Shown here: in pieces, positions 1 to 26,859 of the stretch
Numbering within the stretch: the first letter of the stretch is position 1
Layout of the letters: each line of letters starts with the position of its first letter
Assembly (NCBI GenBank): GCA_027493375.1
Contig: JAPVWO010000059.1
Span: 6,507 to 70,506 of the forward strand
DNA: 64,000 nt
Origin: Candidatus Multivorans thiocomprendens
GTDB lineage: Bacteria > Acidobacteriota > Thermoanaerobaculia > Multivoradales > Multivoraceae
Direction of reading: 5' to 3'
The notes under the pieces: generated by a model
Told to the model about the DNA's origin: nothing
The model's input: only the letters and a program-made list of their open reading frames with translations
Databases searched by the model: none
Program-made: the position numbers and the translations under genes

Positions 1-186
1 CCACAGAGGTTCGCCGACCTGGAGTGGCGTCATCGCCTCGGCCAGAAAGGCGAAGGCGTCCACGAAGCTGCTCTTGCCCGAGCCGTTCCTGCTGGCGAGA
101 AACATCGGATTGGCGAGGACCACCTCTTCGGAAGACGGGCTCCGGGAGCGGTGAAGAAGAAGCCGATTCAAGACCGGGCCCGTCAT
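1..186 (-). CDS. P-loop ATPase, N-terminal fragment; the gene continues beyond the window edge
   Basis: Reverse-strand ATG at 184-186, 4 nt downstream of the methyltransferase stop. Translation MTGPVLNRLLLHRSRSPSSEEVVLANPMFLASRNGSGKSSFVDAFAFLAEAM contains a Walker A motif (NGSGKSS) of the AAA_15/OLD-like 'GxNGSGKS' kind. Confidence 0.5.
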   Translation of the reverse strand, partial: MTGPVLNRLLLHRSRSPSSEEVVLANPMFLASRNGSGKSSFVDAFAFLAEAMTPLQVGEPLW

Positions 187-190
187 GGGG

Positions 191-3160
191 TCACCTTGGC
201 ACCGCCAGCAGCATGGCGTCGAGGAGCCGTTTCTCGGTTGAGCCGCGAGGGTAGAGGGCCGAGAGGGCGTTGGCGAGACGCAGGAAGTAGGGGCCGCGCT
301 CTTGCTCCGCCTCGATCAGGCGGCGCAACGCATTCGCGTGGCCGTTTGATTGGAGCAGCATGGCGGCGTGAACTCGGTCGAGTGTCGTGGCGCCTGCCGG
401 GTCGAGGGCCGGGTCCGCGTCCAGCCGGACTTGCCTTCTGCGGCCGCTGCCGGCATTTCGGCGACCCCGCCGAGATACCTGCGGAGCAGCCGCTTCTGGG
501 AACAAGACCTGTTGAAGACTCCCGATCGGGTCGCGCTCGATGACGACCGCGGCTTTAGCGGTGCCGTCATCGCCGAAGAGTTCGCGCGCCCGCTCCGTAA
601 CCGGTAGCAGGCGTACGACGCCCTTCTTCTGGACGACGATGCGGCCCGTCCAGGCACCAAGGTCGATGCCCATCGGCTGGGCGAAACGGCGGACGACATC
701 AAATGGAAGGCTGAAGCCTTTAGAAGCGGCCTTGGCGACGGTAGCGCGGGCGTGTACTTGCTTCCTTAGGGCCTCATCTGTCGGGTCAGTAAGCTGCACG
801 GTCCAGAGGAAGAGTGCGGTCAACCGGGCGTCCTCTTCCAGATTCCGGGCGAACTCCTCGCGACCGACCTCACTACCGTGCTTGAGCACCTGCCTCAACG
901 CCGCTCTCGCGACCTCCTCCCAGACCTTCTCGAGATACTCCGGTAGGCCCACAGTGGAACCCTCCGCGGTTTCGACCCGCCCGTACCGACTGAAGATCTC
1001 GAGCGCGGGGCCGATGCAAGAGAAGACCAGATCCGCGCCGCGGACGCCTTCCCCCTGTAGGCGTTTCATGGAGTCGGCGACGCGAACGGGCAACTCGCGT
1101 AGGACATCGGCCCAATCGCCAGCAGGGCTACCTATAGCACGTGGTCGGCAGACGAGATGCACACTTGTCGCCAGAGCCGCCGAGTCTCGAGCCCGGATGC
1201 GATGAGGCATCTCCGTTGCTATGGGCCACGACGCGGTAATCGTCCAGCCACCGCCAATCATCCCGGAGAGAAAGGCCTCCCAGCCTTCTGTTGTCTGATG
1301 CGCGAACACGACCGCGCCGATACCGTTCCCCTGTAGAATGCGCCTGCCTTCGATAAACGACTGCTCCATCGCTCGGTTGAAGAACAGCGCATCTTTGGGA
1401 CGACCGTCAACGGCTTTCGAAGAGTCTTGAACCGCCTCTTGGCGCTTTGGAGAGAGAGGATTGTCAGGGTCAAAGGAGTCTCGCAGCAGAGGATGCCCCG
1501 GCAAACTTCGCTTTAGCCAGACCAAGAACGCGTCAGCGAGGTCAGCGTAGGGAATGGCGTCATAGTATGGCGGATCCGTGAAGAAAAGAGATGCCGAGTT
1601 GTCTGGAAGTGGGGACCGTTGAGCCATGGCTTGACTTGCCTGGCCGACGCGTGGGGGAGCCACGTCAGCGGAGCGGATGCCGGCACGAAGGTTGGCTGTA
1701 CACTTCTCCAGCGACCCACTTGATTGGCTTAGCGGGCACGCCTCCACGAAGTCCCAACTCATCTTCAATCTTCCCAGTTTGAGAACTGCTGAGGGACATT
1801 CTTGGCCAGGCATCCAGGAGCAAAGGCTGTTTCCGAGGTCAACTAGCTTGCCAATCGCCAAGGCCGAAGCGTCGATGGAGCGCTGGTCGACAGTGGCGGT
1901 CGCTAGAGCCAAGGCAGAGTGGGCTACTGCTTGCCGAGCCGTGAACAAGTCGGACCAACGGCGCATCCCGTACCGTTGAACACGGAAACCAAGAGTGCCG
2001 ATTGGCGGTAGTGGTTCGTCAGGCACCGGGCACAGGCCCTGTCTTCCACCGGAGTCCCAATCGTCTCGGATGGCCGAAAGCAGCATCTGGGACCGAAAGA
2101 CCGGGGCGTAGTCGGCCTCTGTCGGTTCTCTGTAGAGCCTGCCGGGCTTGCCAGACTTGAGTGTGACCACCGCGAGCAGTCGCGCCCCACTGGTCCGCCC
2201 GCCTTCGGAATCGAAAGCCGGGTCGGCTCCGCCGCGCTGAGCGACGAGCTGTGCCTTCACCCGTTCCGGGGACAGGACGCTGGGACAACACAAGCACGAC
2301 GCCTTGGCGCGCGTAATGTTGGCGCGGCGCACGTCGCCTTCGGCCTGCGGCTCGAAAATCTCGAACTCGACCTGCGGCGGCTGTCCCGAAAGGCGTCTAG
2401 TCCGCGGACGCAGGGCTCGCCTGCGGTTGGGCTTCTTGCATAGCCAGAATGAACGCAAGAGCGGAAGCTCGGCGCCGCAGTCAGGCGCTTCGCAGCGCAC
2501 GGTGCGGGCCCAGAGATAGGCGATCGGTTCTGCACCATCCGGGTCGGCTGGATAGAGGTCGGCGAGCTTCTGTGTGGCTTGTTCCTGGATCTCCGACCCC
2601 AAGCGGCGAAGGGTGCCGGTTAGGCCGGGTCCGTGCCGCGGAAGGTCCTCCAGAATGACCTTTAGGATGAGGCATGCCACTGGGTTCAGATCGCTGGCGA
2701 AAGCGTCGCAGCCGAGCCGCAGGGCCTCTAGGGGTATTGAACCGCCGCCGGCGAAGGGGTCTACGACGAGCGGGGCACGTTCGCCGTGAGCCGCAAGCAG
2801 TAGGTTCCGGGCGACCCGAACGTAGGTCGGTTCCCCTGCCATGTCCCAGTTCGCGAAGGCTCCGATGAACCAAAGAAGAGCCTTCTTGGTCTCCTCGTCG
2901 TCGGTGGGCGGCTGCCGCACCTCCTTGAGGATTCCACGCGCCTGCTGTTTGAAAGCCTCGGGACAAAGAGGATCGCAAGGGTCCGGCAGTAGCAGGGCCA
3001 TCAGCATCGCCCGGGACGACGCCAATGGCCGTCGCGCCCACCACAGGTGGATCGTCGACGGATGTCCGTGCCGGATCGACTTCTCGCGCACTGCGTGCCG
3101 CGAGACCTCGGCGATCGGGAAGTCGACCTCAGCGAGGCGCTTGCACTCGCGGGGGATCAA
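191..3160 (-). CDS. DUF1156-family DNA methyltransferase, N6-adenine/N4-cytosine class, 989 aa, probably TTG start
   Basis: N-terminus MIPRECKRLAEVDFPIAEVSRHAVREKSIRHGHPSTIHLWWARRP is the DUF1156 signature. Motif I VVDPFAGGGSIP and motif IV FFTDPPYYD are both visible. The start overlaps the stop of the upstream small ORF (TTGA). Confidence 0.8.
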   Translation of the reverse strand: MIPRECKRLAEVDFPIAEVSRHAVREKSIRHGHPSTIHLWWARRPLASSRAMLMALLLPDPCDPLCPEAFKQQARGILKEVRQPPTDDEETKKALLWFIGAFANWDMAGEPTYVRVARNLLLAAHGERAPLVVDPFAGGGSIPLEALRLGCDAFASDLNPVACLILKVILEDLPRHGPGLTGTLRRLGSEIQEQATQKLADLYPADPDGAEPIAYLWARTVRCEAPDCGAELPLLRSFWLCKKPNRRRALRPRTRRLSGQPPQVEFEIFEPQAEGDVRRANITRAKASCLCCPSVLSPERVKAQLVAQRGGADPAFDSEGGRTSGARLLAVVTLKSGKPGRLYREPTEADYAPVFRSQMLLSAIRDDWDSGGRQGLCPVPDEPLPPIGTLGFRVQRYGMRRWSDLFTARQAVAHSALALATATVDQRSIDASALAIGKLVDLGNSLCSWMPGQECPSAVLKLGRLKMSWDFVEACPLSQSSGSLEKCTANLRAGIRSADVAPPRVGQASQAMAQRSPLPDNSASLFFTDPPYYDAIPYADLADAFLVWLKRSLPGHPLLRDSFDPDNPLSPKRQEAVQDSSKAVDGRPKDALFFNRAMEQSFIEGRRILQGNGIGAVVFAHQTTEGWEAFLSGMIGGGWTITASWPIATEMPHRIRARDSAALATSVHLVCRPRAIGSPAGDWADVLRELPVRVADSMKRLQGEGVRGADLVFSCIGPALEIFSRYGRVETAEGSTVGLPEYLEKVWEEVARAALRQVLKHGSEVGREEFARNLEEDARLTALFLWTVQLTDPTDEALRKQVHARATVAKAASKGFSLPFDVVRRFAQPMGIDLGAWTGRIVVQKKGVVRLLPVTERARELFGDDGTAKAAVVIERDPIGSLQQVLFPEAAAPQVSRRGRRNAGSGRRRQVRLDADPALDPAGATTLDRVHAAMLLQSNGHANALRRLIEAEQERGPYFLRLANALSALYPRGSTEKRLLDAMLLAVPR

Positions 3161-3354
3161 AGGCGTTCCTCGACCCAGCGAACGACGCTCCTGGAAAGCT
3201 GGAGGTGTTCGAGAAGTACGCCCTGCTGGCGCGGCCCCGTCTCGCCCCGCGCCGCCGAGCCGAACAGGATGATCTTGTCCGGTTCGGCGACCTCGACTAT
3301 GCGCCTGACGATCTCGTTCGACGTTCCCTGATCGACTGTGGGTCCCTGGTTCAT
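3157..3354 (-). CDS. Small translationally coupled ORF (65 aa) with a degenerate minimal-nucleotidyltransferase (MNT-like) motif
   Basis: Its ATG overlaps the DUF262 gene stop (ATGA) and its TGA overlaps the methyltransferase TTG start (TTGA). Sequence IVRRIVEVAEPDKIILFGSAARGE matches the NTase hG[GS] strand, but the downstream catalytic DxD is replaced (GVLLEH). Confidence 0.4.
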   Translation of the reverse strand: MNQGPTVDQGTSNEIVRRIVEVAEPDKIILFGSAARGETGPRQQGVLLEHLQLSRSVVRWVEERL

Positions 3355-5465
3355 GTGGAGCGTCCCCACCGGCGGCCGACGTAGGCGACGGCCTCGTTCA
3401 CGGGCAGCGCCTTGGTCGCGTTGCCGCTGCGCACGTAGAACAGCGCTTGGTTGGGATGTTCTACGTAGATCGGATGATCGCTCGGTTCCACGGTAACCTG
3501 ACAGACATCTTCACCGTCGATTTCGTGGAAGTTGACCGTCAGGAAGGACGCCGCCGCGGCTTCACCCAGATCCCGTTCCACGACTTGGCGGAGGTGGAGC
3601 TCAAGACCGTCGCGGTCCGGTTTCTTTAGAGTGCCGTAGTCGGTGCCTACTCCGACCGGCAGACCGGCATCGTCAACGCCGATCAGCAGCGTTCCGCCGT
3701 CGGCGTTCAGGAACCCGGCGATCGTCTTGACCACGGTGCCTTCGAGCGCCTTGTTGACTCGTTCTTCCCGGCGGTCCCAGCGGAGGCTCGACTTGAACTC
3801 GACCAGTTCGTTCTCTCCTTCGGCCAGCAGGCGCCGGGCGCCCTGTTCGTCGATGGCATCCGGATCGGTGTCCGGTATCCAGCTCGCGATGAAGTCGTTC
3901 ATCGCCTGGGCCAGAAGGCGGCGCCGCTCGGCGAGAAAGGCGAGGAAGTTCTCGGTCGTCCAGAGTTCCCGGTTCAGCGGAATCGACTGGGCCTGGAGCG
4001 CCCCGGGTTGAAGCGTCTCGATCTCCGGCAGGTACTCGGTAGGCGGCAGGTTGCGCCGGTCCTTGGGCGGCTTGGTGCCGAGTGCGGCCCGGTTACCCAC
4101 GGCGTTGATTCGGGCGTTGTCGTCGAACCCGTGCTGCCGGAGCAGCTTGCCGGGGAAGATGTAGTGCCGTTCCTCCTTCTGGCTTGCTGCGGTCGCACTG
4201 TCGAAGATCGGAATACCCGTGAACCAGTCCCGTGCGCCCCGGGAGCGCGCAACGACCCGGCTCAGCCGGGCCACGGCGGAGTTGATCCCCGCCCGCTCGA
4301 GATCGGCCGCTTCCAAGGTGGTTCTTCCGCGTTCGCGGAGGATGGCTGCTTCGAGTTCGTGCGTTGGGTCGAGGTCCTTGCCCGTTACCAGGGCGACATC
4401 CTGCTGGAGTTTCGTCTCGCTGGCCCCGGAGTAGCGGGTCCACAGGCCGGCAAGGTGAACCCAGCGAATGAACCGGTGCCGGATCGCCTCGCTGGGAAAG
4501 CGCCCGCCTTGCCCGGCGAGGTAGACGGTGGCCGGCACCAGCACGTAGTTCGTCGCCAAGTCCCCCAGGCCGCGAACGAACGTCTCGTGACGCAGGACGC
4601 TCGCCAGATGCTCGAAGGCCGGCTGCATTCTCTTCCACGCGCTCTGCAGTTCGTCGGGCGGCGTCCTCAGGAATACTCCTTCGAGCAACACCGAACCGGT
4701 TGCTACGCCCGCCAGACAGCGCACCAGGAAGTTCAGGTCGACTCCGAATCCGCGTTCCCCCATCTTCGCGCTGAAGGCTCGCAGTTCTCCGCGGGCCTCG
4801 GGCCACAGGCCGCAAATGTGGGCAAGAGCGAGGTCGGCCTTGGTCAGGGGCGTGCCCTTGCTGTTGACGCGGTTGAAGATGTCGACGACCTCGTCGACAG
4901 TGAATTCGTCTCCGGAGACCTCGTCTACGGTGTAGGTGTAGTCGCGGACCTTGTCCAGGCGTCCCAACCGGGCGAGGTTGCTCTGGAAGACCGCGCGCCG
5001 CTCCATCTCCAGCTCCTCGATCCGTTCGAGCAGGCCGGTAAGACCCTCCTTCAGGAACTCGTGGACGCCGATCCAGGCCGGGTCGTTCTGCATTCGCGAC
5101 CGTTGCCAGAACCTGAACTCCTCGGTTTGGACGTTGAAGTACAGGTCAAAGAAGAGGGACTCGCCTTCGTAGAAGTCGGGTGCTTCGCCAGCGAAGAGCA
5201 CGTACAGGGTGGTCAGCCGCTGCTGGCCGTCGAGGAGCAGGAGCGTGTGGCCGTCGCGGGGCGGTGCGGCGCCTCGTACTAGCGAGGGCTTGTACGTGCT
5301 CCAGATGAGCAGATGTCCGGTCGGGTGTCTGCGATACAGGGAGTGCAGAAGGCTCCGAACCTGGTTCCGATTCCACACATAGCCGCGCTGGAACTCGGGC
5401 AGCAGGATCTCGCCGCGGCGGATCTGGTTCAACAGTTCCGATATCGATCTCGTCTGGTGCATCAC
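3351..5465 (-). CDS. DUF262 (ParB/GmrS-like NTPase) - DUF1524 (HNH/His-Me nuclease, GmrD-like) - C-terminal Schlafen/AlbA_2 domain fusion protein, 704 aa
   Basis: N-terminus ELLNQIRRGEILLPEFQRGYVWN plus DGQQRLTTL is the DUF262 signature. A mid-region EERHYIFP...N...GN...N fits DUF1524. The C-terminus ELVEFKSSL...TIAGFLNADGGTLLIGVDD matches AlbA_2/SLFN-like. GTG start overlaps the SNF2 gene stop (GTGA). Confidence 0.8.
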   Translation of the reverse strand: MMHQTRSISELLNQIRRGEILLPEFQRGYVWNRNQVRSLLHSLYRRHPTGHLLIWSTYKPSLVRGAAPPRDGHTLLLLDGQQRLTTLYVLFAGEAPDFYEGESLFFDLYFNVQTEEFRFWQRSRMQNDPAWIGVHEFLKEGLTGLLERIEELEMERRAVFQSNLARLGRLDKVRDYTYTVDEVSGDEFTVDEVVDIFNRVNSKGTPLTKADLALAHICGLWPEARGELRAFSAKMGERGFGVDLNFLVRCLAGVATGSVLLEGVFLRTPPDELQSAWKRMQPAFEHLASVLRHETFVRGLGDLATNYVLVPATVYLAGQGGRFPSEAIRHRFIRWVHLAGLWTRYSGASETKLQQDVALVTGKDLDPTHELEAAILRERGRTTLEAADLERAGINSAVARLSRVVARSRGARDWFTGIPIFDSATAASQKEERHYIFPGKLLRQHGFDDNARINAVGNRAALGTKPPKDRRNLPPTEYLPEIETLQPGALQAQSIPLNRELWTTENFLAFLAERRRLLAQAMNDFIASWIPDTDPDAIDEQGARRLLAEGENELVEFKSSLRWDRREERVNKALEGTVVKTIAGFLNADGGTLLIGVDDAGLPVGVGTDYGTLKKPDRDGLELHLRQVVERDLGEAAAASFLTVNFHEIDGEDVCQVTVEPSDHPIYVEHPNQALFYVRSGNATKALPVNEAVAYVGRRWGRST

Positions 5466-8400
5466 ATGGTTCCTGTCGGATCGGTCTGGCGCAGTGCGTC
5501 AACATCCAAATGGTAGTGCGCCACCTTCGTGACGTCGCGCCACGGAAACCGGGCGGGATCGTGAACCGGTTCCTGTAGCTGGGGAGTCTTCGCGCAGTCG
5601 GTGACCACGTAGAGCCAGTAGCAGTCCCGCCGATCCTCGGCGACGCGCCGCTCGTTCGGTGTAAGCAGGACACTCCCCTTCGTGCCGGCAAGACCCTTGA
5701 TCTCGATCAGGCGGAGTTCACCGGATTCCAGGTCGAGGCTGGTGATGTCGTAGCCGAGATTCTGCTGGTGAACGTCCTCGACGTGGCGGCCCCGCGCCTT
5801 CTCGTGTTCGATGACGATCTGCATGGCGGTCATTTCGGTCTCGGGGTGGGGGCGGAGATTCCTGAGGTCGGGCGCGTTCCTGTCGGGGTGGGGCAGGATG
5901 AGCGCGCTCGCCAGGCGTTCCACCGCCTGCAGGGTCACGGCTCGCTGCCGGTCGAGTTCGTCGCGGCGTTGGTCTCGTCGGGCCAGCAGTTCGGCATGGC
6001 GGTTCTCGGCCCGGGCCAGACGGCCCTGGGCGCCTTGCACGTCTTGCTGCGTCTCCTGGGCCGCATGGCCGATCTCGTCGTCGGTCCGCTGGATGGCGGC
6101 GGTCAGCGAGAGGCCGACGTGCTCGGCGATCCGCTCGACTTCTTCGAGGCGTTCGTCCCGGACTTCGCGCAGGAACGGACGGAGCGCGTTCTCGTCCAGC
6201 CAGGCGGTTGCCTCCGGGAGGAATGCCGCTGCGGGGAGTGGTTCCGGGGAAGAAGCAGGCGTCAGGTTGCCGAGCGCGTCCGGAGCCCGAAGCCGAGGGG
6301 GACCGTCTGGTTGGAGTTCCAGGGCGAACAGCCGCTCATGGATCACCTTGCCGAGGCCGTCCACGACGCGGGCTCGATAGAAGTCGAGGCGCGCCGGCGC
6401 CTCGTGGGCGATGGAGTGGAAGCACGCGCCCCGGGCGAGGGAGTCCTGGCCCTGGTCGAGGCTGTGCAGCCGCAGGGCCTCGAAGAGCGGGTGGCCGGGC
6501 GTAACCCACTCGAGGCTGTGCTGTTCCGCCGTGTGGCGGTCAGTGGACAGGCGCGGATAGCGTGCCGCCAGCTCGGGCCGCCTCCAACTGGGCCGGCGCT
6601 CGTACTTCTTGAGGTCGAGGGGCGTGCGCCCGGGGTCGAAGCCGTGAGGCAGGTTGGTGACAGGCCTGAGCCGGAGGTTCGCGTTGCTCGCCGTCTCGCC
6701 GATGAACCGCGCGATCGTCTCCGGGACCACGCGGCGCTCCCGCGCCCTGGCCTGACGTTCGACGAGCATGTCGAGATTGAGCTTCCTGGACGCGAGGCCT
6801 TCGAGCGCCGTCTGACAGATGTCGCGGAAGCGGCCCTCGTCCACGTTCCTCAGGAGCCGGTCTTCGAGGTCGGCATCCCCGAGCTTCCCGGCGTAGTAGT
6901 CGCGCAGCGTCCGCTCGACCTGGGCCGACGGCAGAATCTCGCCGACCACGTTAAACACCGCGTCGTCGTCGAGCGCGTCGCGGATCTTCTGGAGCTTCTG
7001 AAGCAGCCGTTGGAGCACCCGGCCTTCGATCGTATTCGTGGCCACGAAGTTGAAGATCAGGCAGTCGTGCTTCTGTCCATAGCGGTGGATGCGGCCCATT
7101 CGCTGTTCGAGCCGGTTCGGATTCCAGGGAATGTCGTAGTTGAAGAGGATGTGGCAGCACTGCAGGTTGATGCCTTCGCCGGCCGCTTCGGTGGCGACCA
7201 GGACCTGGATTGCACCTTCGCGGAACTGCTGTTCGGTGTAGAGCCGCGTCCCTGGTTCGTCGCGGGACCCCGGCTTCATGCTGCCGTGGATGCAGCCGGC
7301 GCTGAAGCCCCAGGTTCTCAGGTGACCGAGGAGGTGATCCAGGGTGTCCTTGAACTCGGTGAAGATCAGTAGGCGTTGGTCGGGCCGGTCGAAGAACCCC
7401 TCGTCCCGCAGCACCTGTCTGAGGTGCCCCAGCTTCGCCTCGTTCCCGGCGCCTTCGACCGCCGCCGCTTCTTCGGCCAGTTGGCGAAGTTCGTCGATCT
7501 CCTCGCCCACCTGCTCGGCGTTGCCGGTCAGCGTGATCGCTTCGAGCAGCCGCTCCAGTTCCTCGCGTGCGGCGTCCTCGAACTCTTCGAGTTCCTCGGC
7601 CGTAGGGAGAATCGGGGGCGCTGCCACGACGATGTCCTCCGCTTCCGTGAGCGCCTTCTCCAGGCGCGTGGCGCGGTTCTCGAGTGAACGCCGCATGGCG
7701 TAGGTGCTCGAGGCGAGACGCCTCTGGTAGAGAGCCATCAGGAAGCCGACGGCGCGCGCCCTGGGGTCGTCGCCGCGGGCCGCGGCGAGGCGGCTCTGCC
7801 GCTTCACGAACCGTGTCACGCGGTCGTAGAGGTCAAACTCCGGGCCGTCGATGGCGAAGTCGGCTGTGCGCGGGATTCGCTTCGTGAACACCGGTTTCGC
7901 CGCCCATGAGCCGTCCTCCTGCCGGTCGGGGAAGTAGACCATGGCCTCCTTGGTGCGGCGGAGATAGAAGGGGGCCCTGCGTTGGTTCATGGCGGCTCGA
8001 ATCGACGTTACGTCGGCGTAGACGTCCCGATCGAGTAACTGAAGGAACAGGCTGAAGTTCTTCGGATCGCCCTTGTGCGGCGTCGCGGTCAGCAGCAGGA
8101 TGTGGTCCGCGCGGTCGCGGAGCAGTTCTCCCAGCTTGTAGCGGAGGCTCTTGTGGCTCTCGTCCCGCGCCGACATGCGGTGCGCCTCGTCGACGATCAC
8201 GAGGTCCCAGTGAACCTGTTCGAGTCCGGGCAGGATCTCGTCGCGCTTCGCCAGATCGAGCGACGTGATGATCTGGTTCCGCTCCATCCATTGGTTGACG
8301 CCGAACTGGTCGCGGATGTCGCTGCCCTTGAGGACGATGAACTTCTCGTCGAACTTCTCGCTCAGTTCGCGCTGCCATTGGAACGTCAGGTTCGCCGGGC

Positions 8401-8872
8401 AGACGACCAGGACGCGCTCGACGAGTCCGCGGAGCTTGAGTTCACGAAGCAAGAGCCCCGCCATGATCGTCTTGCCGGCACCCGCGTCGTCGGCGAGCAG
8501 GAACCGCACGCTCGGCAGCTTGAGAAGGTGGTCGTAGACGGCCTCCAATTGGTGAGGCAGCGGATCGACCCGGGAGGTCGACAGGCCGAAGTAGGGGTCG
8601 AACTCGTAGGCGATGCCCAGCGCGTAGGCCTGAAGCCCCAGGCGCAGCAACCGTCCATCGCCGTTGTAGGAGAGAGACGCGTCGGCCACGTCGAGCCTGG
8701 CGATGTCGTCCGGCGTTAGCGTGACTCGGCGGAACCGCTCGCTTTGTTGGCCGACTAGGCCGGCTACCCACACGCCGGGACCGTTCGGCCGGACGGTTTC
8801 GACCCGCATCGGCTCGCTGAACAGCGGACCGGTCAGAACTTGTCCTTCGCGGATGGCGGCCTCGGTTTTCAA
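5462..8872 (-). CDS. SNF2-family helicase (DEAH box plus helicase-C) with a C-terminal DUF3883 restriction-endonuclease-like domain, 1136 aa, TTG start
   Basis: Motifs LLADDAGAGKT (Walker A), VIVDEAH (DEAH), and helicase-C ...VATEAAGEGINLQ...QRMGRIHRYGQ. The C-terminus ...GYDITSLDL...LIEIKG...YWLYVV resembles DUF3883. Confidence 0.85.
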   Translation of the reverse strand: MKTEAAIREGQVLTGPLFSEPMRVETVRPNGPGVWVAGLVGQQSERFRRVTLTPDDIARLDVADASLSYNGDGRLLRLGLQAYALGIAYEFDPYFGLSTSRVDPLPHQLEAVYDHLLKLPSVRFLLADDAGAGKTIMAGLLLRELKLRGLVERVLVVCPANLTFQWQRELSEKFDEKFIVLKGSDIRDQFGVNQWMERNQIITSLDLAKRDEILPGLEQVHWDLVIVDEAHRMSARDESHKSLRYKLGELLRDRADHILLLTATPHKGDPKNFSLFLQLLDRDVYADVTSIRAAMNQRRAPFYLRRTKEAMVYFPDRQEDGSWAAKPVFTKRIPRTADFAIDGPEFDLYDRVTRFVKRQSRLAAARGDDPRARAVGFLMALYQRRLASSTYAMRRSLENRATRLEKALTEAEDIVVAAPPILPTAEELEEFEDAAREELERLLEAITLTGNAEQVGEEIDELRQLAEEAAAVEGAGNEAKLGHLRQVLRDEGFFDRPDQRLLIFTEFKDTLDHLLGHLRTWGFSAGCIHGSMKPGSRDEPGTRLYTEQQFREGAIQVLVATEAAGEGINLQCCHILFNYDIPWNPNRLEQRMGRIHRYGQKHDCLIFNFVATNTIEGRVLQRLLQKLQKIRDALDDDAVFNVVGEILPSAQVERTLRDYYAGKLGDADLEDRLLRNVDEGRFRDICQTALEGLASRKLNLDMLVERQARARERRVVPETIARFIGETASNANLRLRPVTNLPHGFDPGRTPLDLKKYERRPSWRRPELAARYPRLSTDRHTAEQHSLEWVTPGHPLFEALRLHSLDQGQDSLARGACFHSIAHEAPARLDFYRARVVDGLGKVIHERLFALELQPDGPPRLRAPDALGNLTPASSPEPLPAAAFLPEATAWLDENALRPFLREVRDERLEEVERIAEHVGLSLTAAIQRTDDEIGHAAQETQQDVQGAQGRLARAENRHAELLARRDQRRDELDRQRAVTLQAVERLASALILPHPDRNAPDLRNLRPHPETEMTAMQIVIEHEKARGRHVEDVHQQNLGYDITSLDLESGELRLIEIKGLAGTKGSVLLTPNERRVAEDRRDCYWLYVVTDCAKTPQLQEPVHDPARFPWRDVTKVAHYHLDVDALRQTDPTGTM

Positions 8873-9025
8873 TGTGTTGAGTAGTCCTGGATGCGCGACC
8901 TTGGACCAGCCTCGAACGAGAGGCGACTGCTTCTCAAGGACGACGGCAGAAGATAGGCGGTGGCGAATGTGGCGTCAATGGTCTGACTGGCCTGACGGCG
9001 TAGATCGCGCAAGGTCTGTTCCCGG

Positions 9026-10954
9026 CTACTCCCGCGGCCGCAGGACCCGCCGCCGGTCGCCCTCCCGCCGCGTCAGCCGCTGCCGGTCCAGGTGCTCGAG
9101 CAGCGGAATCGCCCACTTGCGGGTCAGGCCGAAGCGGTCCTTGAAGTCGGCGACGGTGAACGTGTCCCAGCCGGTGGCGAGAAGGTCGGCCTGAAACCGT
9201 TCCAGGGCGGACGCTGCGAGGAGGAGGCCGCTGGGCAGCCGGACCAGCTTGCCGCGCTCCACCAGGTAGCGGAGCACGCCGTCGAAGACCTGGGGCTTGG
9301 CCCCCAGGGTGCGGCAGAGCTCCTCGGGAGAGCCGGGGGTCAGTCCCTGTTCCTTGAAGCCTCCGACGATGTCCCGCGCCAGCCTGGACTCTGCGCCGGT
9401 CAGTTCGCTGGCGCGGCCCGGGAGAGTCACGAGTTCGCCGTCCGTGACGACGCTCAAGTCCTTGCCGCCGCGGCTCGACCAGTCCAGGTAGGCCGGGGCG
9501 AGGTCGGCGGCGCGCGCGCCCAGCAGCCGGCGGACGAGCTCGGCCTTCGGCATGCCGCGAGACAGGCGGTCGGCGGCGAAGTGCGCCTCGACGAGACGCC
9601 GGGCACGGCGTGTCACGCGACGGACGGTCGCCGCGGTGACGAAGCGGCCGCCGGCGCCCGCCTCGAGCAGCAGGCTCGCCTGAGCGGCGCCGTTCAGCAC
9701 CTCCCGGGCGTCGGCGGGGACGACGCCCAGGCGCAGGGCGAGTTCGGTCACGGCCAGACCGGCCTCGCGGCTGTCGGCGGCCCACTGCACGGCGGCGGCC
9801 TGCCGGTCGCCGGCGTCCAGCGCCTCGATCGTCGGCGCGAGAGCCTTGCCTCGAGGACGCCTCCAGGCCGGGTCGAGCACCGCGCCGCCGCCTAACGTTG
9901 TCTGGGGCGAGGGCCTGCGGATGACGAAGCGGTCGCCGCGAACCGCCACCAGGGGCTCGTCGAGCCGGATCTCCGCCAGCGCTTCCTGGCCCGGGACAAG
10001 CCGTTCGGTCTCGAGCGGCCGGAGCTTGCCGATCCGCTGCGCTGCGTTGACGTGAAGCCGCACCGGGCTGCTGCCGTCGAGCGGTTCGGGCGCCGTGGCG
10101 AGCAGCCGGCAGCGCACGAGCAGGGAAGTCGTGGCGCGGTAGACGGCGGGGGCGGTCAGTTCGTGGCCGCGGGCGACCTGCTCAAGATCGACGCCGACGA
10201 GCTGGAGCGACGTGCGCTCGCCGGCTTCCGCCTGCTGGCGGCGGTCGCCGTGGACCTCGATGCTGCGCACCCGGGCACGGCCGGCGGCGGGCAGGATATC
10301 CAGCTCATCGCCGACGCATACGGTCCCGCGGGCGAGCGTGCCGGTGACCAGCACGCCGAGTCCCCGCAGGTGAAAGGCCCGGTCGATCGGCAGCCGGGCG
10401 GGCAGACGGCGATAGCGGTCGATCGGGGCCGCCGACCTGGCGAGCTCCACCAGGGCCGCGCGGAGCTGCTCCAGGCCTTCGCCGCTCTGGGCCGACACCG
10501 GCAGGATCGGCGCGCCGGCGAACGGGGTGTCGGCCAGCGCCTCCTTGAGCTCCAGCTCGGCAAGCTCCACCAGGTCGGGCGACACGAGGTCCGTCTTCGA
10601 CAGCACCGCCAGGCCGGCCGGGATCCGGAGCAGCGAGCAGATCGCGAGGTGCTCCAGGGTCTGCGGCATGACCCCTTCGTCGGCGGCCACGACCAGCACC
10701 ATCATCTGGATGCCGCCGAGCCCTGCGAGGGCGTTGTGGACGAAGCGCTCGTGTCCGGGCACATCGACGAAGCCGATCTGCCAGCCGTCCTCGACCATCG
10801 AGGCGAAGCCGAGGTCGATCGTGATGCCGCGCTGCTTCTCCTCTTCCCAGCGGTCGCAGTCGACCCCGGTCAGGGCCTGGACCAGCCGTGTCTTGCCGTG
10901 ATCGACGTGGCCCGCGGTGCCGACGACGAACCGGTTGGCGGCTATCTCGCTCAC
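9026..10954 (-). CDS. selB: Selenocysteine-specific elongation factor SelB (GTG start overlapping the upstream regulator stop)
   Basis: GTAGHVDHGKTRLVQALTG...DLGFA GTPase motifs plus a long C-terminal winged-helix region. The ORF-track N-terminal extension has no start candidates; GTGA overlap at 10951-10954. Confidence 0.85.
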   Translation of the reverse strand: MSEIAANRFVVGTAGHVDHGKTRLVQALTGVDCDRWEEEKQRGITIDLGFASMVEDGWQIGFVDVPGHERFVHNALAGLGGIQMMVLVVAADEGVMPQTLEHLAICSLLRIPAGLAVLSKTDLVSPDLVELAELELKEALADTPFAGAPILPVSAQSGEGLEQLRAALVELARSAAPIDRYRRLPARLPIDRAFHLRGLGVLVTGTLARGTVCVGDELDILPAAGRARVRSIEVHGDRRQQAEAGERTSLQLVGVDLEQVARGHELTAPAVYRATTSLLVRCRLLATAPEPLDGSSPVRLHVNAAQRIGKLRPLETERLVPGQEALAEIRLDEPLVAVRGDRFVIRRPSPQTTLGGGAVLDPAWRRPRGKALAPTIEALDAGDRQAAAVQWAADSREAGLAVTELALRLGVVPADAREVLNGAAQASLLLEAGAGGRFVTAATVRRVTRRARRLVEAHFAADRLSRGMPKAELVRRLLGARAADLAPAYLDWSSRGGKDLSVVTDGELVTLPGRASELTGAESRLARDIVGGFKEQGLTPGSPEELCRTLGAKPQVFDGVLRYLVERGKLVRLPSGLLLAASALERFQADLLATGWDTFTVADFKDRFGLTRKWAIPLLEHLDRQRLTRREGDRRRVLRPRE

Positions 10955-12318
10955 GAACCGCGTTCGGGGTCGATGCCGTAGGCCTGGAGCTTGCGGTACA
11001 GGTGGCGGCGGTCGACTCCGAGGTCCCGGGCGGTCTGGGAGACGTTGCCGCCGGCGGCGCCGAGCCGGCGCTCGATGTAGAGCCGCTCGAAGGTCTCGCG
11101 GGCCTCCTTGAGCGAGGCGTAGTCGTTGCCCACCTGGGCGATCGCGTCCGCCCCGCGTACCCGAGGCGGCAGGTCCCCTTCCATGACCACGTCGCCGGGC
11201 GCCATGATCATCAGGCGTTCGCTCAGGTTGCGGAGTTCCCGCACGTTCCCCGGCCACGAGTAGGCGACCAGCCGTTCGAGCGCCCGGGGGTCGACCGTCT
11301 TCGGACGGCGGCCGGCCTCGGCGGCGAAGCGTTCGAGGAAGTGGTCGATCAGGGCCGGGATGTCCCGGCGCCGCTCGCGAAGGGCCGGCACGTGGAGCGG
11401 AATGACGGCGAGCCGGAAGTAGAGGTCCTCGCGGAACCGGCCGGCGGGGAGTTCGTCCTCTTCCAGGTTCTTGTTCGTCGCCGCCAGCACCCGCACGTCA
11501 ACGTCGATCGGCTCGGAACCTCCCACCCGCTCGAACCGTTGCTCCTCCAGCACGCGCAGCACCTTGGCCTGAGTGTTCAGCGACATGTCGGCGATCTCGT
11601 CCAGAAACAGGGTGCCTCCGTCGGCCTGTTCGAACCGTCCGCGGCGGTTCTCCGAGGCGCCGGTGAAGGCGCCCTTGATGTGCCCGAAGAGCTCGCTCTC
11701 GATGAGTTCCTCCGGGATCGCGGCGCAGTTCACTTCGACGAAGGCGCGGCTCCTGCGCTGGGAGAGGCCGTGGATGCGTCTCGCGACGAGCTCCTTGCCC
11801 GTGCCGTTCTCGCCGGTGATCAGGATCCGGCTCTCGGCGCGCGCCGAGAGCTTCAACTCGTCCTTCAATTGCCGCATGGACGGCGAGTCGCCGATGAGCT
11901 GCCGCTCGGGATCGAGCCGGTTCGACAGTTCCCGCACCTCGCGTTCGAGACGTTTCCGCTCCAGGGCGTTCTCGACCGACACGACGACCCGGTTGAGCGC
12001 CAGCGGCTTCTCCAGGAAGTCGTGCGCGCCGATGCGCATCGCCTTGACCGCCGTGTCGATGTTGCCGTGGCCGGAGATGACGATGACCGGCGTCTGGAAG
12101 TCGCCCTCGCGGAGTTCCTCCAGGATCTCCAGGCCGTCGCGGTCGGGCAGCCAGACGTCGAGCAGGACGAGGTCGAACTCGTCGCTCGCCATCAGCGCCT
12201 GGCCGCTCACCGCGTCCGCCGCCGCCGCCACCGAGTGGCCTTCGTCCTCGAGGATGTCCCGCAGGGTCTGGCGGATGCCGGCCTCGTCGTCGACGATCAG
12301 AATGCGCGCCTTGCTCAT
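10951..12318 (-). CDS. Sigma-54-dependent response regulator (NtrC/NtrX family)
   Basis: REC domain (ILIVDDE...D), AAA+ sigma-54 interaction domain (GENGTGKELVAR, GAFTGA), C-terminal Fis-type HTH. Confidence 0.85.
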   Translation of the reverse strand: MSKARILIVDDEAGIRQTLRDILEDEGHSVAAAADAVSGQALMASDEFDLVLLDVWLPDRDGLEILEELREGDFQTPVIVISGHGNIDTAVKAMRIGAHDFLEKPLALNRVVVSVENALERKRLEREVRELSNRLDPERQLIGDSPSMRQLKDELKLSARAESRILITGENGTGKELVARRIHGLSQRRSRAFVEVNCAAIPEELIESELFGHIKGAFTGASENRRGRFEQADGGTLFLDEIADMSLNTQAKVLRVLEEQRFERVGGSEPIDVDVRVLAATNKNLEEDELPAGRFREDLYFRLAVIPLHVPALRERRRDIPALIDHFLERFAAEAGRRPKTVDPRALERLVAYSWPGNVRELRNLSERLMIMAPGDVVMEGDLPPRVRGADAIAQVGNDYASLKEARETFERLYIERRLGAAGGNVSQTARDLGVDRRHLYRKLQAYGIDPERGS

Positions 12319-15282: not shown

Positions 15283-16281
15283 CTACGGGGGCGGACCGGC
15301 GAAACCGGGATGCCAGGTCGGCGGCCGGTCGCCGTCGAGCGGGCGATCCGCTTCCGGCGGCAGTTCGTCGCCGCGCAGCCAAGTCCAGCAGCGCGAGTTG
15401 GCGACGAGTTTCCTCAGCAACTCGTAGTGGAGTTGGTGGCCGCCCCGCAGAACCTCGAAGTGGCCCCAGATCGGCGCTCCGAGCAGGGTGAAGTCTCCCA
15501 CCGCGTCGAGCGCCTTGTGCCGAACCGGCTCGTCCGTGAAACGGAGGTCCGTGTTCACCGCGCCGTGTTCGTCGAAGACGATGCAGTTGTCGACCGACCC
15601 GCCCAGCCCCAGTCCGGCTCGCTGCATCTGTTCGACGTCCATCTCCCGGCAGAAGGTCCGCGCAGGCGCCAGACCGCGCTCGAAGCTGCGCGTGTCGACG
15701 TCGATCTGCAACCTCTGGCGTCCCACGGCGCAGCCTTCGAAGTCGATCGTGTAGTCCAGGCGCAGGCCGGGGTAGGGCGATGCGCGCAGCCACTTGTCGC
15801 CGCGGTCGATCTCGATCACCGAAGTGATCGCGAGGATCTGCCGGTTCGCGTTCTGGGACCTCACTCCCGCCGCCTGCAGCAAGAGCAGGTAGGGCATCGC
15901 CGAGCCGTCGAGGATCGGCACCTCGGGGCCGTCCATCTCGACGACCAGGTTGTCGATGCCGAGGATGTAGACGGCGGCGAGGAGGTGCTCGACGGTGGAG
16001 ACGGTCACATCGTCGCGACCGAGCGTGGTGGCGAGTTCGAGGGAACTGACGCTCGTCAGGTCGGCGGGAACCTCCACGTTGCCGGCATCCGCGCGGCGGA
16101 AACGGATGCCCGCGCCGGGCGGCGCCGGCAGGATGCGCAGATTCGTCTCCCGGCCGGTGTGAATGCCCACGCCGGAGATCGCCGTCGGACGCCGGATCGT
16201 CTGCTGGAGGAAGAGGCGGTCACGCGTGTCGTTGGACCGTCGCCGGGAGTTCCGGCCGGATCCGTTGGGGCGCTTTGCCAT
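15283..16281 (-). CDS. lpxC: UDP-3-O-acyl-N-acetylglucosamine deacetylase LpxC (true start probably near 16200)
   Basis: TIRRPTAISGVGIHTGRETNLRILPAPPGAGIRFRR aligns to the LpxC N-terminus; the ORF-track start gives a non-homologous 25-aa extension. Confidence 0.85.
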   Translation of the reverse strand: MAKRPNGSGRNSRRRSNDTRDRLFLQQTIRRPTAISGVGIHTGRETNLRILPAPPGAGIRFRRADAGNVEVPADLTSVSSLELATTLGRDDVTVSTVEHLLAAVYILGIDNLVVEMDGPEVPILDGSAMPYLLLLQAAGVRSQNANRQILAITSVIEIDRGDKWLRASPYPGLRLDYTIDFEGCAVGRQRLQIDVDTRSFERGLAPARTFCREMDVEQMQRAGLGLGGSVDNCIVFDEHGAVNTDLRFTDEPVRHKALDAVGDFTLLGAPIWGHFEVLRGGHQLHYELLRKLVANSRCWTWLRGDELPPEADRPLDGDRPPTWHPGFAGPPP

Positions 16282-26783: not shown

Positions 26784-26859
26784 TGGTGGAGCAGAAGGGA
26801 CTTGAACCCTCGACCCCCACGTTGCGAACGTGGTGCTCTCCCAGCTGAGCTACTGCCCC
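26784..26859 (-). tRNA. tRNA-Ala (anticodon CGC)
   Basis: Cloverleaf GGGGCAGTAGCTCAGCTGGGAGAGC...TTCGCAA...GGTTCAAGTCC...CTGCTCCACCA with G3:U70 and encoded CCA. Confidence 0.85.

Follow-up and report, generated by a model that had tools for sequence, protein, structure and literature searches.

A probable Hma anti-phage operon with embedded defence genes and apparent remnants of two deleted cassettes in an Acidobacteriota-like genome

We analysed 64,000 nucleotides (nt) of contig JAPVWO010000059.1 from Candidatus Multivorans thiocomprendens (the window), in which a defence island occupies positions 1..9025, up to the stop codon of selB. This locus is very probably an Hma (helicase-methylase-ATPase) anti-phage operon of an Acidobacteriota-like genome, with known defence genes embedded between its core genes and with its 5' two-thirds held by the window. 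As part of this reading, the operon would run in the order hmaA, a gene for a DUF262-Schlafen protein (gene 2), an MNT-HEPN scar, hmaB, the scar left by an older ABC ATPase cassette, the HEC-01A-HEC-01B pair and hmaC, with Drt4 as its neighbour. Hma was defined by Payne et al. 2021 (PMC8565338), and the embedding of other defence genes in Hma loci, as well as the HEC-01 and HEC-05 families, was described by Payne et al. 2024 (10.1101/2024.01.29.577857). Hma loci have been renamed Type-1 DUF499-centred BREX-related (BR) systems (NAR 2026, PMC12839542).

Proteins of the operon were assigned to families using Pfam, PADLOC and NCBIfam profile searches. In the window, PADLOC profiles matched HmaA (E 6.2e-166), HmaB (E 1.2e-96) and HEC-05 (E 2e-37), with only a partial match to HEC-01A. 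An exact-sequence look-up of HmaB returned eight contigs, six of which are described here (L001-L006); relative to the window, L003-L006 were 100% identical (L003 over 5867 nt) and L001 and L002 were 99.7% identical. Past window position 1, L001-L003 continue with an open reading frame (ORF) of 70 amino acids (aa), HEC-01A, HEC-01B, hmaC and then Drt4. There, HEC-01A is a 375-aa ABC ATPase with a GTG start and its own Walker A motif (PADLOC E 1e-116), and HEC-01B is a 222-aa DUF4276 protein (PADLOC E 2e-62), such that the arrangement characteristic of HEC-01, an intact ATPase followed by a DUF4276 TOPRIM protein, is found outside the window (L003 5891-7683). The hmaC gene encodes a 923-aa DUF499 ATPase in L003 and is also present in L001 and L002 (PADLOC HmaC E 9.9e-96). 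We identify the locus as Hma because HmaA and HmaB are matched in the window and HmaC is matched in the identical contigs. 3' of hmaC and in the same orientation, L003 carries a Drt4-type reverse transcriptase of 517 aa (10554-12107; PADLOC E 6e-138), which scored 375 bits against the NCBIfam Drt4 profile (cut-off 450); all contigs with the identical operon end directly after this gene.

An earlier sequence-only reading of this DNA had tentatively likened it to a PADLOC 'Hma' class, and this comparison was correct, with HmaA and HmaB in the window and HmaC just outside it; its general view of a methylation-linked defence operon also stands, the locus being Hma. The same reading did not recognise the five ORFs as a named set. 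They correspond to Hma with embedded HEC-05/pSlfn7-type and HEC-01 genes, an architecture that has been published (10.1101/2024.01.29.577857; PMC11232893; PMC12839542). The five ORFs are real, but the operon has more than five genes and leaves the window, and two of the ORFs are scars as far as can be judged from intact relatives.

Compared with Hma/Type-1 BR systems in general, the locus has the same SNF2 helicase-NOV_C nuclease, DUF1156 N6-methyltransferase with an inserted variable region and DUF499 ATPase, in the same order, and other genes are likewise nested between the core genes in the core orientation. Nothing fundamental differs: hmaB has a TTG start, hmaC lies outside the window, and HmaC lacks the N-terminal HEPN fusion that is found in about half of Type-1 BR systems. 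The closest published layout is that of Halomonas Hma loci, which consist of hmaA, a DUF262 protein (GmrSD-like), hmaB, an AAA_21 ATPase pair and hmaC (Liu et al. 2024, PMC11232893, Fig. 5) and were called a 'defence gene insertion hotspot' (PMC11232893). The present operon matches these almost gene for gene but differs in that its DUF262 protein carries a C-terminal Schlafen domain, the partner of its ATPase is recognisably a DUF4276 protein, and two further cassettes are left as scars.

HmaA matched positions 44-1131 of the 1176 in the PADLOC profile over 1047 residues. As the sequence-only reading had proposed, it combines an SNF2 helicase with a PD-(D/E)xK-like DUF3883 domain (Pfam SNF2-rel_dom, Helicase_C and NOV_C, the last being DUF3883), with helicase motifs GAGKT at 131, DEAH at 228 and QRMGRIHR at 590. 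In Halomonas, HmaA alone defends against T4, which requires both helicase and nuclease (nickase) residues, and mutation of D1084, E1104, K1106 and E1121 abolishes T4 defence and plasmid nicking (PMC11232893). The equivalent catalytic residues are kept here as D1042, E1057-I-K1059 and E1074. The start of hmaA at 8872 is apparently a TTG with no obvious Shine-Dalgarno sequence, an internal ATG (Met22) being the alternative.

In HmaB, we found both of the motifs expected of a DUF1156 methyltransferase in the sequence-only reading, namely FAGGG at 136-140 (FxGxG, S-adenosylmethionine (SAM)) and DPPY at 529-532, together with the Pfam DUF1156 match (Table 1). Its target is probably N6-adenine. Residues 401-500, which lie just upstream of DPPY, were the least conserved part of the protein, with a mean identity of 0.25-0.35 cf. 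0.5-0.9 elsewhere among 75 homologues. This hypervariable segment coincides with a dip in G+C content (GC) to 0.57-0.61 inside hmaB, which accords with the patchy GC and the dip in the methyltransferase gene that had been noted from the letters. The same segment interrupts the nucleotide homology with L086 and L087, the closest relatives. BR methyltransferases are known to carry an inserted target-recognition region (PMC12839542), and by analogy the hypervariable segment is likely to be the target-recognition region of HmaB. The start of hmaB at 3160 is apparently TTG, relatives having ATG or GTG at the same position. In L086 (7042-10148; a long-read contig with 5x coverage), hmaB was called as 522 aa only with ~1.5 kb uncalled before it, and this short call probably reflects frameshifts due to sequencing errors rather than real truncation.

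The sequence-only reading had named unlinked genes in related genomes as an outcome that would speak against it. We scanned one genome per species for HmaB and searched the resulting 79 loci with nine operon proteins using tblastn. Full-length HmaB homologues in these 79 genomes shared 57-68% identity, and the loci spanned Latescibacterota, Gemmatimonadota, Spirochaetia, Acidobacteriota, Proteobacteria, Chloroflexota, Nitrospirota, Bacillota, Planctomycetota, one haloarchaeon and other groups. Of the 79 loci, 65 had hmaA upstream of hmaB and 73 had hmaC downstream of it; 12 of the 20 misses had less than 8 kb of flank on the relevant side (9 of 14 for hmaA, 3 of 6 for hmaC). Gaps between the core genes were variable, with a median of 1975 nt between hmaA and hmaB (>500 nt in 55 of 65) and 1105 nt between hmaB and hmaC (>500 nt in 64 of 73). 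Homologues of gene 2 (GmrSD-Slfn genes) occupied the hmaA-hmaB gap in 7 loci and followed hmaB in 4, most Hma loci being without one, and a HEC-01 pair of the type next to the window was present in the hmaB-hmaC gap in 10. Since their positions vary among the 79 loci, the nested genes appear to be mobile passengers that move independently of the linked core. Thus, linkage holds for hmaA, hmaB and hmaC but not for the nested genes.

The 65-aa ORF between gene 2 and hmaB had been counted as a component of the system. Intact MNT (104-122 aa) and HEPN (~130 aa) genes occupy the same slot directly upstream of hmaB in five other loci (L022, L048, L065, L071 and L083), where the HEPN stop overlaps the hmaB start by 4 nt, and an intact MNT-HEPN pair follows the GmrSD-Slfn gene in the sister genome L088. 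The ORF aligned to MNT residues 5-53, including LFGSAARGE (score 144), and its last 17 residues, EHLQLSRSVVRWVEERL, aligned to the HEPN C-terminus, EAVELAELVVRWVEDRL (residues 113-130 of 132), with a score of 53, a value that none of 2000 shuffles attained (20.8 +/- 3.9). At the nucleotide level, homology to L088 is unbroken from the 3' end of the GmrSD gene into MNT and ends at about window position 3210. Pfam gave only a weak NTP_transf_2 match (E 0.011). GSAARGE is kept, but the MNT DxD half (GSx10-13DxD) and the whole HEPN Rx4-6H core are missing, and therefore the ORF cannot be a working toxin-antitoxin pair. It shares with MNT-HEPN (type VII-like) toxin-antitoxin pairs the MNT motif, the HEPN tail and the slot of the intact pairs. 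Judged from these alignments, it is an in-frame deletion remnant of an MNT-HEPN cassette without function of its own, from which ~500-550 nt were deleted in the window lineage; we accordingly rejected a small accessory protein as its identity.

The 3' end of the ORF was apparently retained because it carries the ribosome-binding site (RBS) and the overlapping start codon of hmaB. The Shine-Dalgarno sequence GAGGAA lies within the retained HEPN codons GAG GAA CGC, 4 nt upstream of the hmaB TTG, and relatives whose HEPN is intact have the same GAGGAA upstream of their hmaB. A different MNT-HEPN scar of 48 aa occupies the same slot in L087 (2340-2486), with other junctions, also in frame and with 4-nt overlaps at both ends. 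L087 is a close relative (GmrSD-Slfn 82% identical) that has a DUF433 and PIN/DUF5615 pair in its hmaB-hmaC gap instead of HEC-01. These two cases hint at selection for keeping the frame but do not prove it. MNT or HEPN copies that had decayed by frameshift or truncation were also seen upstream of hmaB in L082 (8904-10004) and L050 (8749-9450), and as a result decay of small cassettes in the slot before hmaB looks frequent; in L082, a PIN-like (VapC-type) ORF directly precedes hmaB.

The last ORF of the window had been described as a P-loop ATPase cut by the window edge. In the identical contigs it is complete at 70 aa, and its end overlaps the GTG from which the intact HEC-01A starts; it is neither HmaC nor an intact ATPase. 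It matched only positions 7-56 of 399 in the PADLOC HEC-01A profile (PDLC04178) and belongs to another HEC-01A subfamily than the intact HEC-01A beyond the window. An intact 416-aa homologue lies directly after hmaB in L009 and L022, and in L022 this cassette stands in tandem with a HEC-01 cassette of the type that follows the window. Relative to the homologue, the ORF contains an N-terminal relic of ~56 aa that includes the Walker A motif NGSGKS (alignment score 156 over residues 1-56), and the context of the phosphate loop has drifted (FRS to SRS, VGQNGSGKS to ASRNGSGKS). A full-length HEC-01 ATPase has Walker A, Walker B and signature motifs; this ORF has only 70 codons. The alignments indicate that the window lineage deleted a first ATPase cassette down to its first ~56 codons, and that the ORF is an in-frame deletion remnant without function of its own. 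The N-terminus of HmaC and a full ATPase were rejected as identities, since the ORF stops after 70 codons and a separate complete ATPase follows.

Gene 2 encodes a protein with a HEC-05/BrxU-like body and the architecture of the Schlafen class pSlfn7, whose C-terminal Schlafen AlbA_2 domain is an RNase. Pfam matched GmrSD_N (that is, DUF262; E 2.3e-31) and SLFN_AlbA_2 (E 2e-16, residues 551-687), the match to PADLOC HEC-05 reached profile position 593 of 600, and there was a profile match to BrxU (E 2e-20). The NTPase motifs FQRG at 25 and DGQQR at 79 are present, as is the Schlafen catalytic motif E551-NELV-E556-F-K558 (Ex4ExK). We built an AlphaFold2 (AF2) model from 74 diverse sequences, including representatives of 50%-identity clusters, which gave a pLDDT (predicted local distance difference test) score of 93 and a predicted template modelling (pTM) score of 0.83; 20 close homologues had given an unusable pLDDT of 49. 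When the model was compared to the PDB using Foldseek, the top match was BrxU (7P9K; E 1.5e-17, 616 columns, 580-residue chain), with a further match to SspE (E 3e-5), and the C-terminal domain matched the AlbA_2 protein 3LMM, SLFN11/13/14/5 and the SAMD9 tRNase.

The sequence-only reading of gene 2 as a DUF262-DUF1524-Schlafen fusion held for DUF262 and Schlafen, which Pfam confirmed; the Pfam DUF1524 profile (GmrSD_C) does not match the protein, yet the model shows a BrxU-like fold in which the corresponding motif is degenerate. The Pfam miss alone is uninformative because GmrSD_C is below threshold (E 0.004-0.009) on family members and relatives even when their HH...N...N motif is intact, and structure and motifs were used instead. 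According to the model, a DUF1524-like domain is present as a fold, since the Foldseek match extends over the full length of BrxU. The wider family carries the His-Me motif ExHHIFP...N..AN..FLT...N, cf. EERH434-Y435-IFP in gene 2, where N458 is conserved and the last Asn is missing. At the position of the second His in HH(I/V)FP, ~58 of 120 close clusters have His, ~39 have Tyr and the remainder another residue, and the terminal Asn is absent in 104, while the Ex4ExK motif is present in 120 of 120. The DUF262-Schlafen fusion is common: at identities of 66% and above there are at least 120 clusters, every one of them with PF03235 and PF04326. At E ≤ 1e-30, 701 representatives of 50%-identity clusters matched gene 2; many are full-length at ~700 aa, and many others are ~530 aa and cover residues 4-528 only, corresponding to the GmrSD body without Schlafen.

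EcoSlfn7, a DUF262-Slfn fusion of class pSlfn7, defends E. coli from several phages including T7; Ex4(E/D)xK is the catalytic motif and is needed for tRNase-based defence in pSlfn5, and tRNA cleavage was shown for pSlfn5, not for pSlfn7 itself (Perez Taboada et al. 2026, PMC13056530). Gene 2 shares with EcoSlfn7 an N-terminal DUF262 domain, a Schlafen nuclease with an intact Ex4ExK motif and a position among defence genes, a likeness of architecture as described, and differs in the decayed His-Me motif, which is a feature of the window clade. With BrxU/HEC-05, GmrSD-family Type IV restriction enzymes, it shares the whole BrxU fold and the DUF262 NTPase motifs, and BrxU-like genes, too, are found inside BREX and Hma operons. 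However, identity to BrxU is ~20%, gene 2 has an extra Schlafen domain of ~160 aa, and it reads H-Y-I-F-P where BrxU has D-H-I-Y-P, in addition to lacking the terminal Asn. From these alignments we infer that the Schlafen RNase would be the conserved effector of the gene 2 clade and the GmrSD body mainly a sensor.

We propose a mechanism in which HmaB would methylate host DNA at sites whose motif its hypervariable segment recognises, HmaC (the DUF499 ATPase) may recognise or scan DNA by analogy to BrxC, and HmaA would translocate on DNA and nick or cut it with its PD-(D/E)xK domain, as was shown for the Halomonas homologue with the same residues. The nested genes would act as independent second-layer (back-up) defences, transcribed together with Hma and coupled to it in translation. 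Among these, HEC-01, of a family related to OLD, PARIS and Gabija, is an OLD/PARIS-like pair of ATPase and TOPRIM nuclease. The GmrSD-like body of gene 2 probably senses phage (modified) DNA or nucleotides, and its output is probably cleavage of tRNA or RNA by the Schlafen domain, given that Ex4ExK is invariant while the motif of the His-Me DNA nuclease has decayed in the clade.

A bolder version, which we put forward only tentatively and hold to be possible but not probable, is that the gene 2 clade lost GmrSD His-Me catalysis and that its body became an NTP-dependent sensor of (modified) phage DNA that triggers the Schlafen tRNase. A Type IV restriction enzyme would thereby have turned into an abortive, translation-targeting effector that backs up Hma against phages with modified DNA. 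A smaller point of the same tentative proposal is that turnover of embedded cassettes may proceed through internal deletions under selection to preserve the frame, as the downstream hma genes need translational coupling and an RBS located inside the upstream cassette.

Several points weigh against the account given above. In the Halomonas work, phage grown on a host overexpressing HmaB did not escape HmaA (PMC11232893), and HEC-01 gave no protection in the single published test (Payne et al. 2024, 10.1101/2024.01.29.577857). In addition, hmaC, HEC-01 and Drt4 are visible only in identical or near-identical contigs, outside the window. For gene 2, H434 is invariant in an alignment of 20 close relatives and present in most of the 120 close clusters, and a shifted His-Me active site is possible, its inactivity being read from an alignment.

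Other explanations of the locus were weighed against these data. If the five ORFs of the window formed a distinct, unnamed modification-dependent machine and all acted together, one would account for their shared direction, their 4-nt overlaps and the same arrangement in all six contigs with an identical HmaB, as far as each extends. We give this explanation almost no credence and regard it as largely refuted, since other loci carry whole copies of the larger genes of which the 65-aa and 70-aa ORFs are pieces, the 70-aa ORF is followed by a complete ATPase that has a Walker A motif of its own, and GmrSD-Slfn genes occur in either gap or without any Hma genes (L088) and are absent from most Hma loci, the core set being hmaA, hmaB and hmaC. 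A DISARM or BREX variant, with DrmD or BrxH as the helicase and DrmMI or PglX as the methylase, is very unlikely. Profiles of DrmD and BrxHI/II did match HmaA (E 1e-118 and 1e-110, and E 6e-102 for NCBIfam DISARM_DrmD), PglX matched HmaB weakly, and BR systems are evolutionary relatives of Type-3 BREX (NAR 2026, PMC12839542). The HmaA model, however, was far better (552 vs 395 bits) and covered the nuclease tail, DrmD scored 343 bits against a curated cut-off of 610, the ATPase is DUF499 and not BrxC, and DrmA, DrmB, DrmC, PglZ, BrxA, BrxB and BrxL are all missing from the operon in L001-L003; DISARM and BREX were rejected on these scores and missing partner genes. The DUF1156/DUF499/DUF3780 clusters to which the sequence-only reading had compared the locus are related, but the locus falls outside that set: the NCBIfam 'anti-phage-associated' DUF1156/DUF499/PLD-helicase profiles NF042963 and NF042962 scored far below their cut-offs (172 bits vs 1000 and 98 vs 1200), the helicase carries NOV_C and not PLD, and no DUF3780 gene is present in the operon of L001-L003. 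MADS was likewise rejected, with mad2 at E 0.0014 on HmaB, mad3 at 84 bits on HEC-01A and NCBIfam MADS3 at 113 bits vs 420.

For gene 2, the alternative is a conventional Type IV modification-dependent DNase like GmrSD or BrxU, in which the Schlafen domain would merely be a nucleic-acid-binding module. The BrxU fold over the full length, the intact DGQQR and FQR motifs, the conservation of H434 and N458, the retention of HH(I/V)FP in about half of the close relatives and the finding that a BrxU-like HEC-05 defends E. coli (Payne et al. 2024, 10.1101/2024.01.29.577857) all agree with such an enzyme. We nevertheless consider it unlikely, as gene 2 has Tyr at the position of the BrxU catalytic His and lacks the last Asn of the metal site, like most of its clade, and because the Ex4ExK motif required for defence by pSlfn5 was kept without exception.

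Within the operon, the genes are tightly packed (Table 1), and our reading of the ORF table and translations agrees exactly with the five coupled minus-strand ORFs and junctions described earlier. The junction of hmaA and gene 2 at 5465-5460 reads ATGTGATG, that is, a GTGA overlap or a 1-nt TGATG overlap; gene 2 and the 65-aa ORF overlap at ATGA (3351-3354), the 65-aa ORF and hmaB overlap at TTGA (3157-3160), and a 4-nt spacer, CCCC (187-190), separates hmaB from the last ORF, which runs off the window. The 65-aa ORF is counted from its ATG and would be 70 aa from an upstream GTG. A sigma-70-like promoter candidate, TTGACG-17-TATCTT, is the sole match in 1-9400, where 0.7 are expected by chance; it is weak and rests on position only. 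A terminator scan found nothing above chance. GC averaged 0.65 in the island, 0.734 in selB and 0.693 in the remainder of the window.

Table 1. Positions of the operon genes, scars and flanking features in the 64,000-nt window.
Feature	Position	Strand	Details and basis
hmaA, SNF2 helicase with C-terminal NOV_C/DUF3883 PD-(D/E)xK nuclease	5462..8872	-	1136 aa, TTG start; PADLOC HmaA, Pfam, motifs
Gene 2, DUF262 (GmrSD_N), helical linker, DUF1524-like domain, C-terminal Schlafen AlbA_2 (embedded)	3351..5465	-	704 aa; Pfam, PADLOC, AF2/Foldseek
65-aa ORF, apparent MNT-HEPN deletion relic	3157..3354	-	residues 1 to ~50 MNT N-terminus, last ~17 HEPN C-terminus
hmaB, DUF1156 amino-methyltransferase	191..3160	-	989 aa, TTG start; PADLOC HmaB E 1.2e-96, Pfam DUF1156 E 8e-21
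hmaB hypervariable low-GC segment	1661..1960	-	residues about 401-500, between SAM motif and DPPY
70-aa ORF, apparent relic of HEC-01A-type ABC ATPase	1..186	-	first 62 codons in window; L003 5682-5894, stop 27 nt beyond position 1
Promoter candidate, sigma-70-like	8950..8978	-	in 153-nt selB-hmaA spacer, ~78 nt upstream of hmaA start
selB, selenocysteine elongation factor, flanking core gene outside the system	9026..10954	-	left boundary of island; Pfam GTP_EFTU, Beta-barrel_SelB, SelB-wing_3; gene call in L002

The selB gene had been taken as convergent with the island; it is on the same strand, upstream of hmaA and co-directional. The tRNA scan of the window found no tRNA near the island and no tRNA-Sec beside selB, and integration at a tRNA was rejected because the nearest such gene is at 26784.

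Comparison with relatives indicated that this region is dynamic. On a 4.8-Mb contig of L088, synteny with the window (82% nucleotide identity) covers positions 16000 to 9025, where selB stops, and resumes at the GmrSD-Slfn gene, L088 having no Hma genes. Its 388-nt spacer between selB and GmrSD (9614-10000) is a mosaic of relics of the MNT N-terminus (66% identity over 32 aa) and of two parts of HmaA, namely motif VI (82% over 17 aa) and the C-terminus (48% over 42 aa). It therefore appears from these spacer relics that Hma was lost in L088 by deletions that left GmrSD-Slfn, MNT and HEPN intact. An alanine dehydrogenase gene lies between selB and hmaA in L086, which among relatives with Hma is the closest (83% identity in GmrSD-Slfn), whereas in L088 it has changed both side and strand; the region downstream of selB is thus rearranged between relatives. 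Among strains, the island (1-9025) showed 0 mismatches to L002 and 1 to L001 over 9025 nt, cf. 31 mismatches in 2363 nt of the selB region (9026-11388), 18 of which cluster at 9161-9302. This suggests a recent exchange of the island between strains (by transfer or sweep) in which recombination ended within the 3' part of selB.

The locus is an ordinary example of an already described Hma system with embedded HEC-05/pSlfn7-type and HEC-01 genes next to Drt4, and it carries little weight for discovery because publications and PADLOC already cover the system type, the nested architecture and every nested family. Its value lies in offering a clean natural example of the replacement of embedded defence cassettes, with two apparent scars in one operon and a sister genome, L088, that lost the Hma core and kept only passengers. 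It also cautions that a small ORF coupled in translation to its neighbours in a defence operon may be the scar of a deletion and not a component. Finally, it adds comparative evidence that one DUF262-Schlafen clade keeps its RNase motif while its DNA-nuclease motif decays, which may hint at the mechanism of pSlfn7-type defence.

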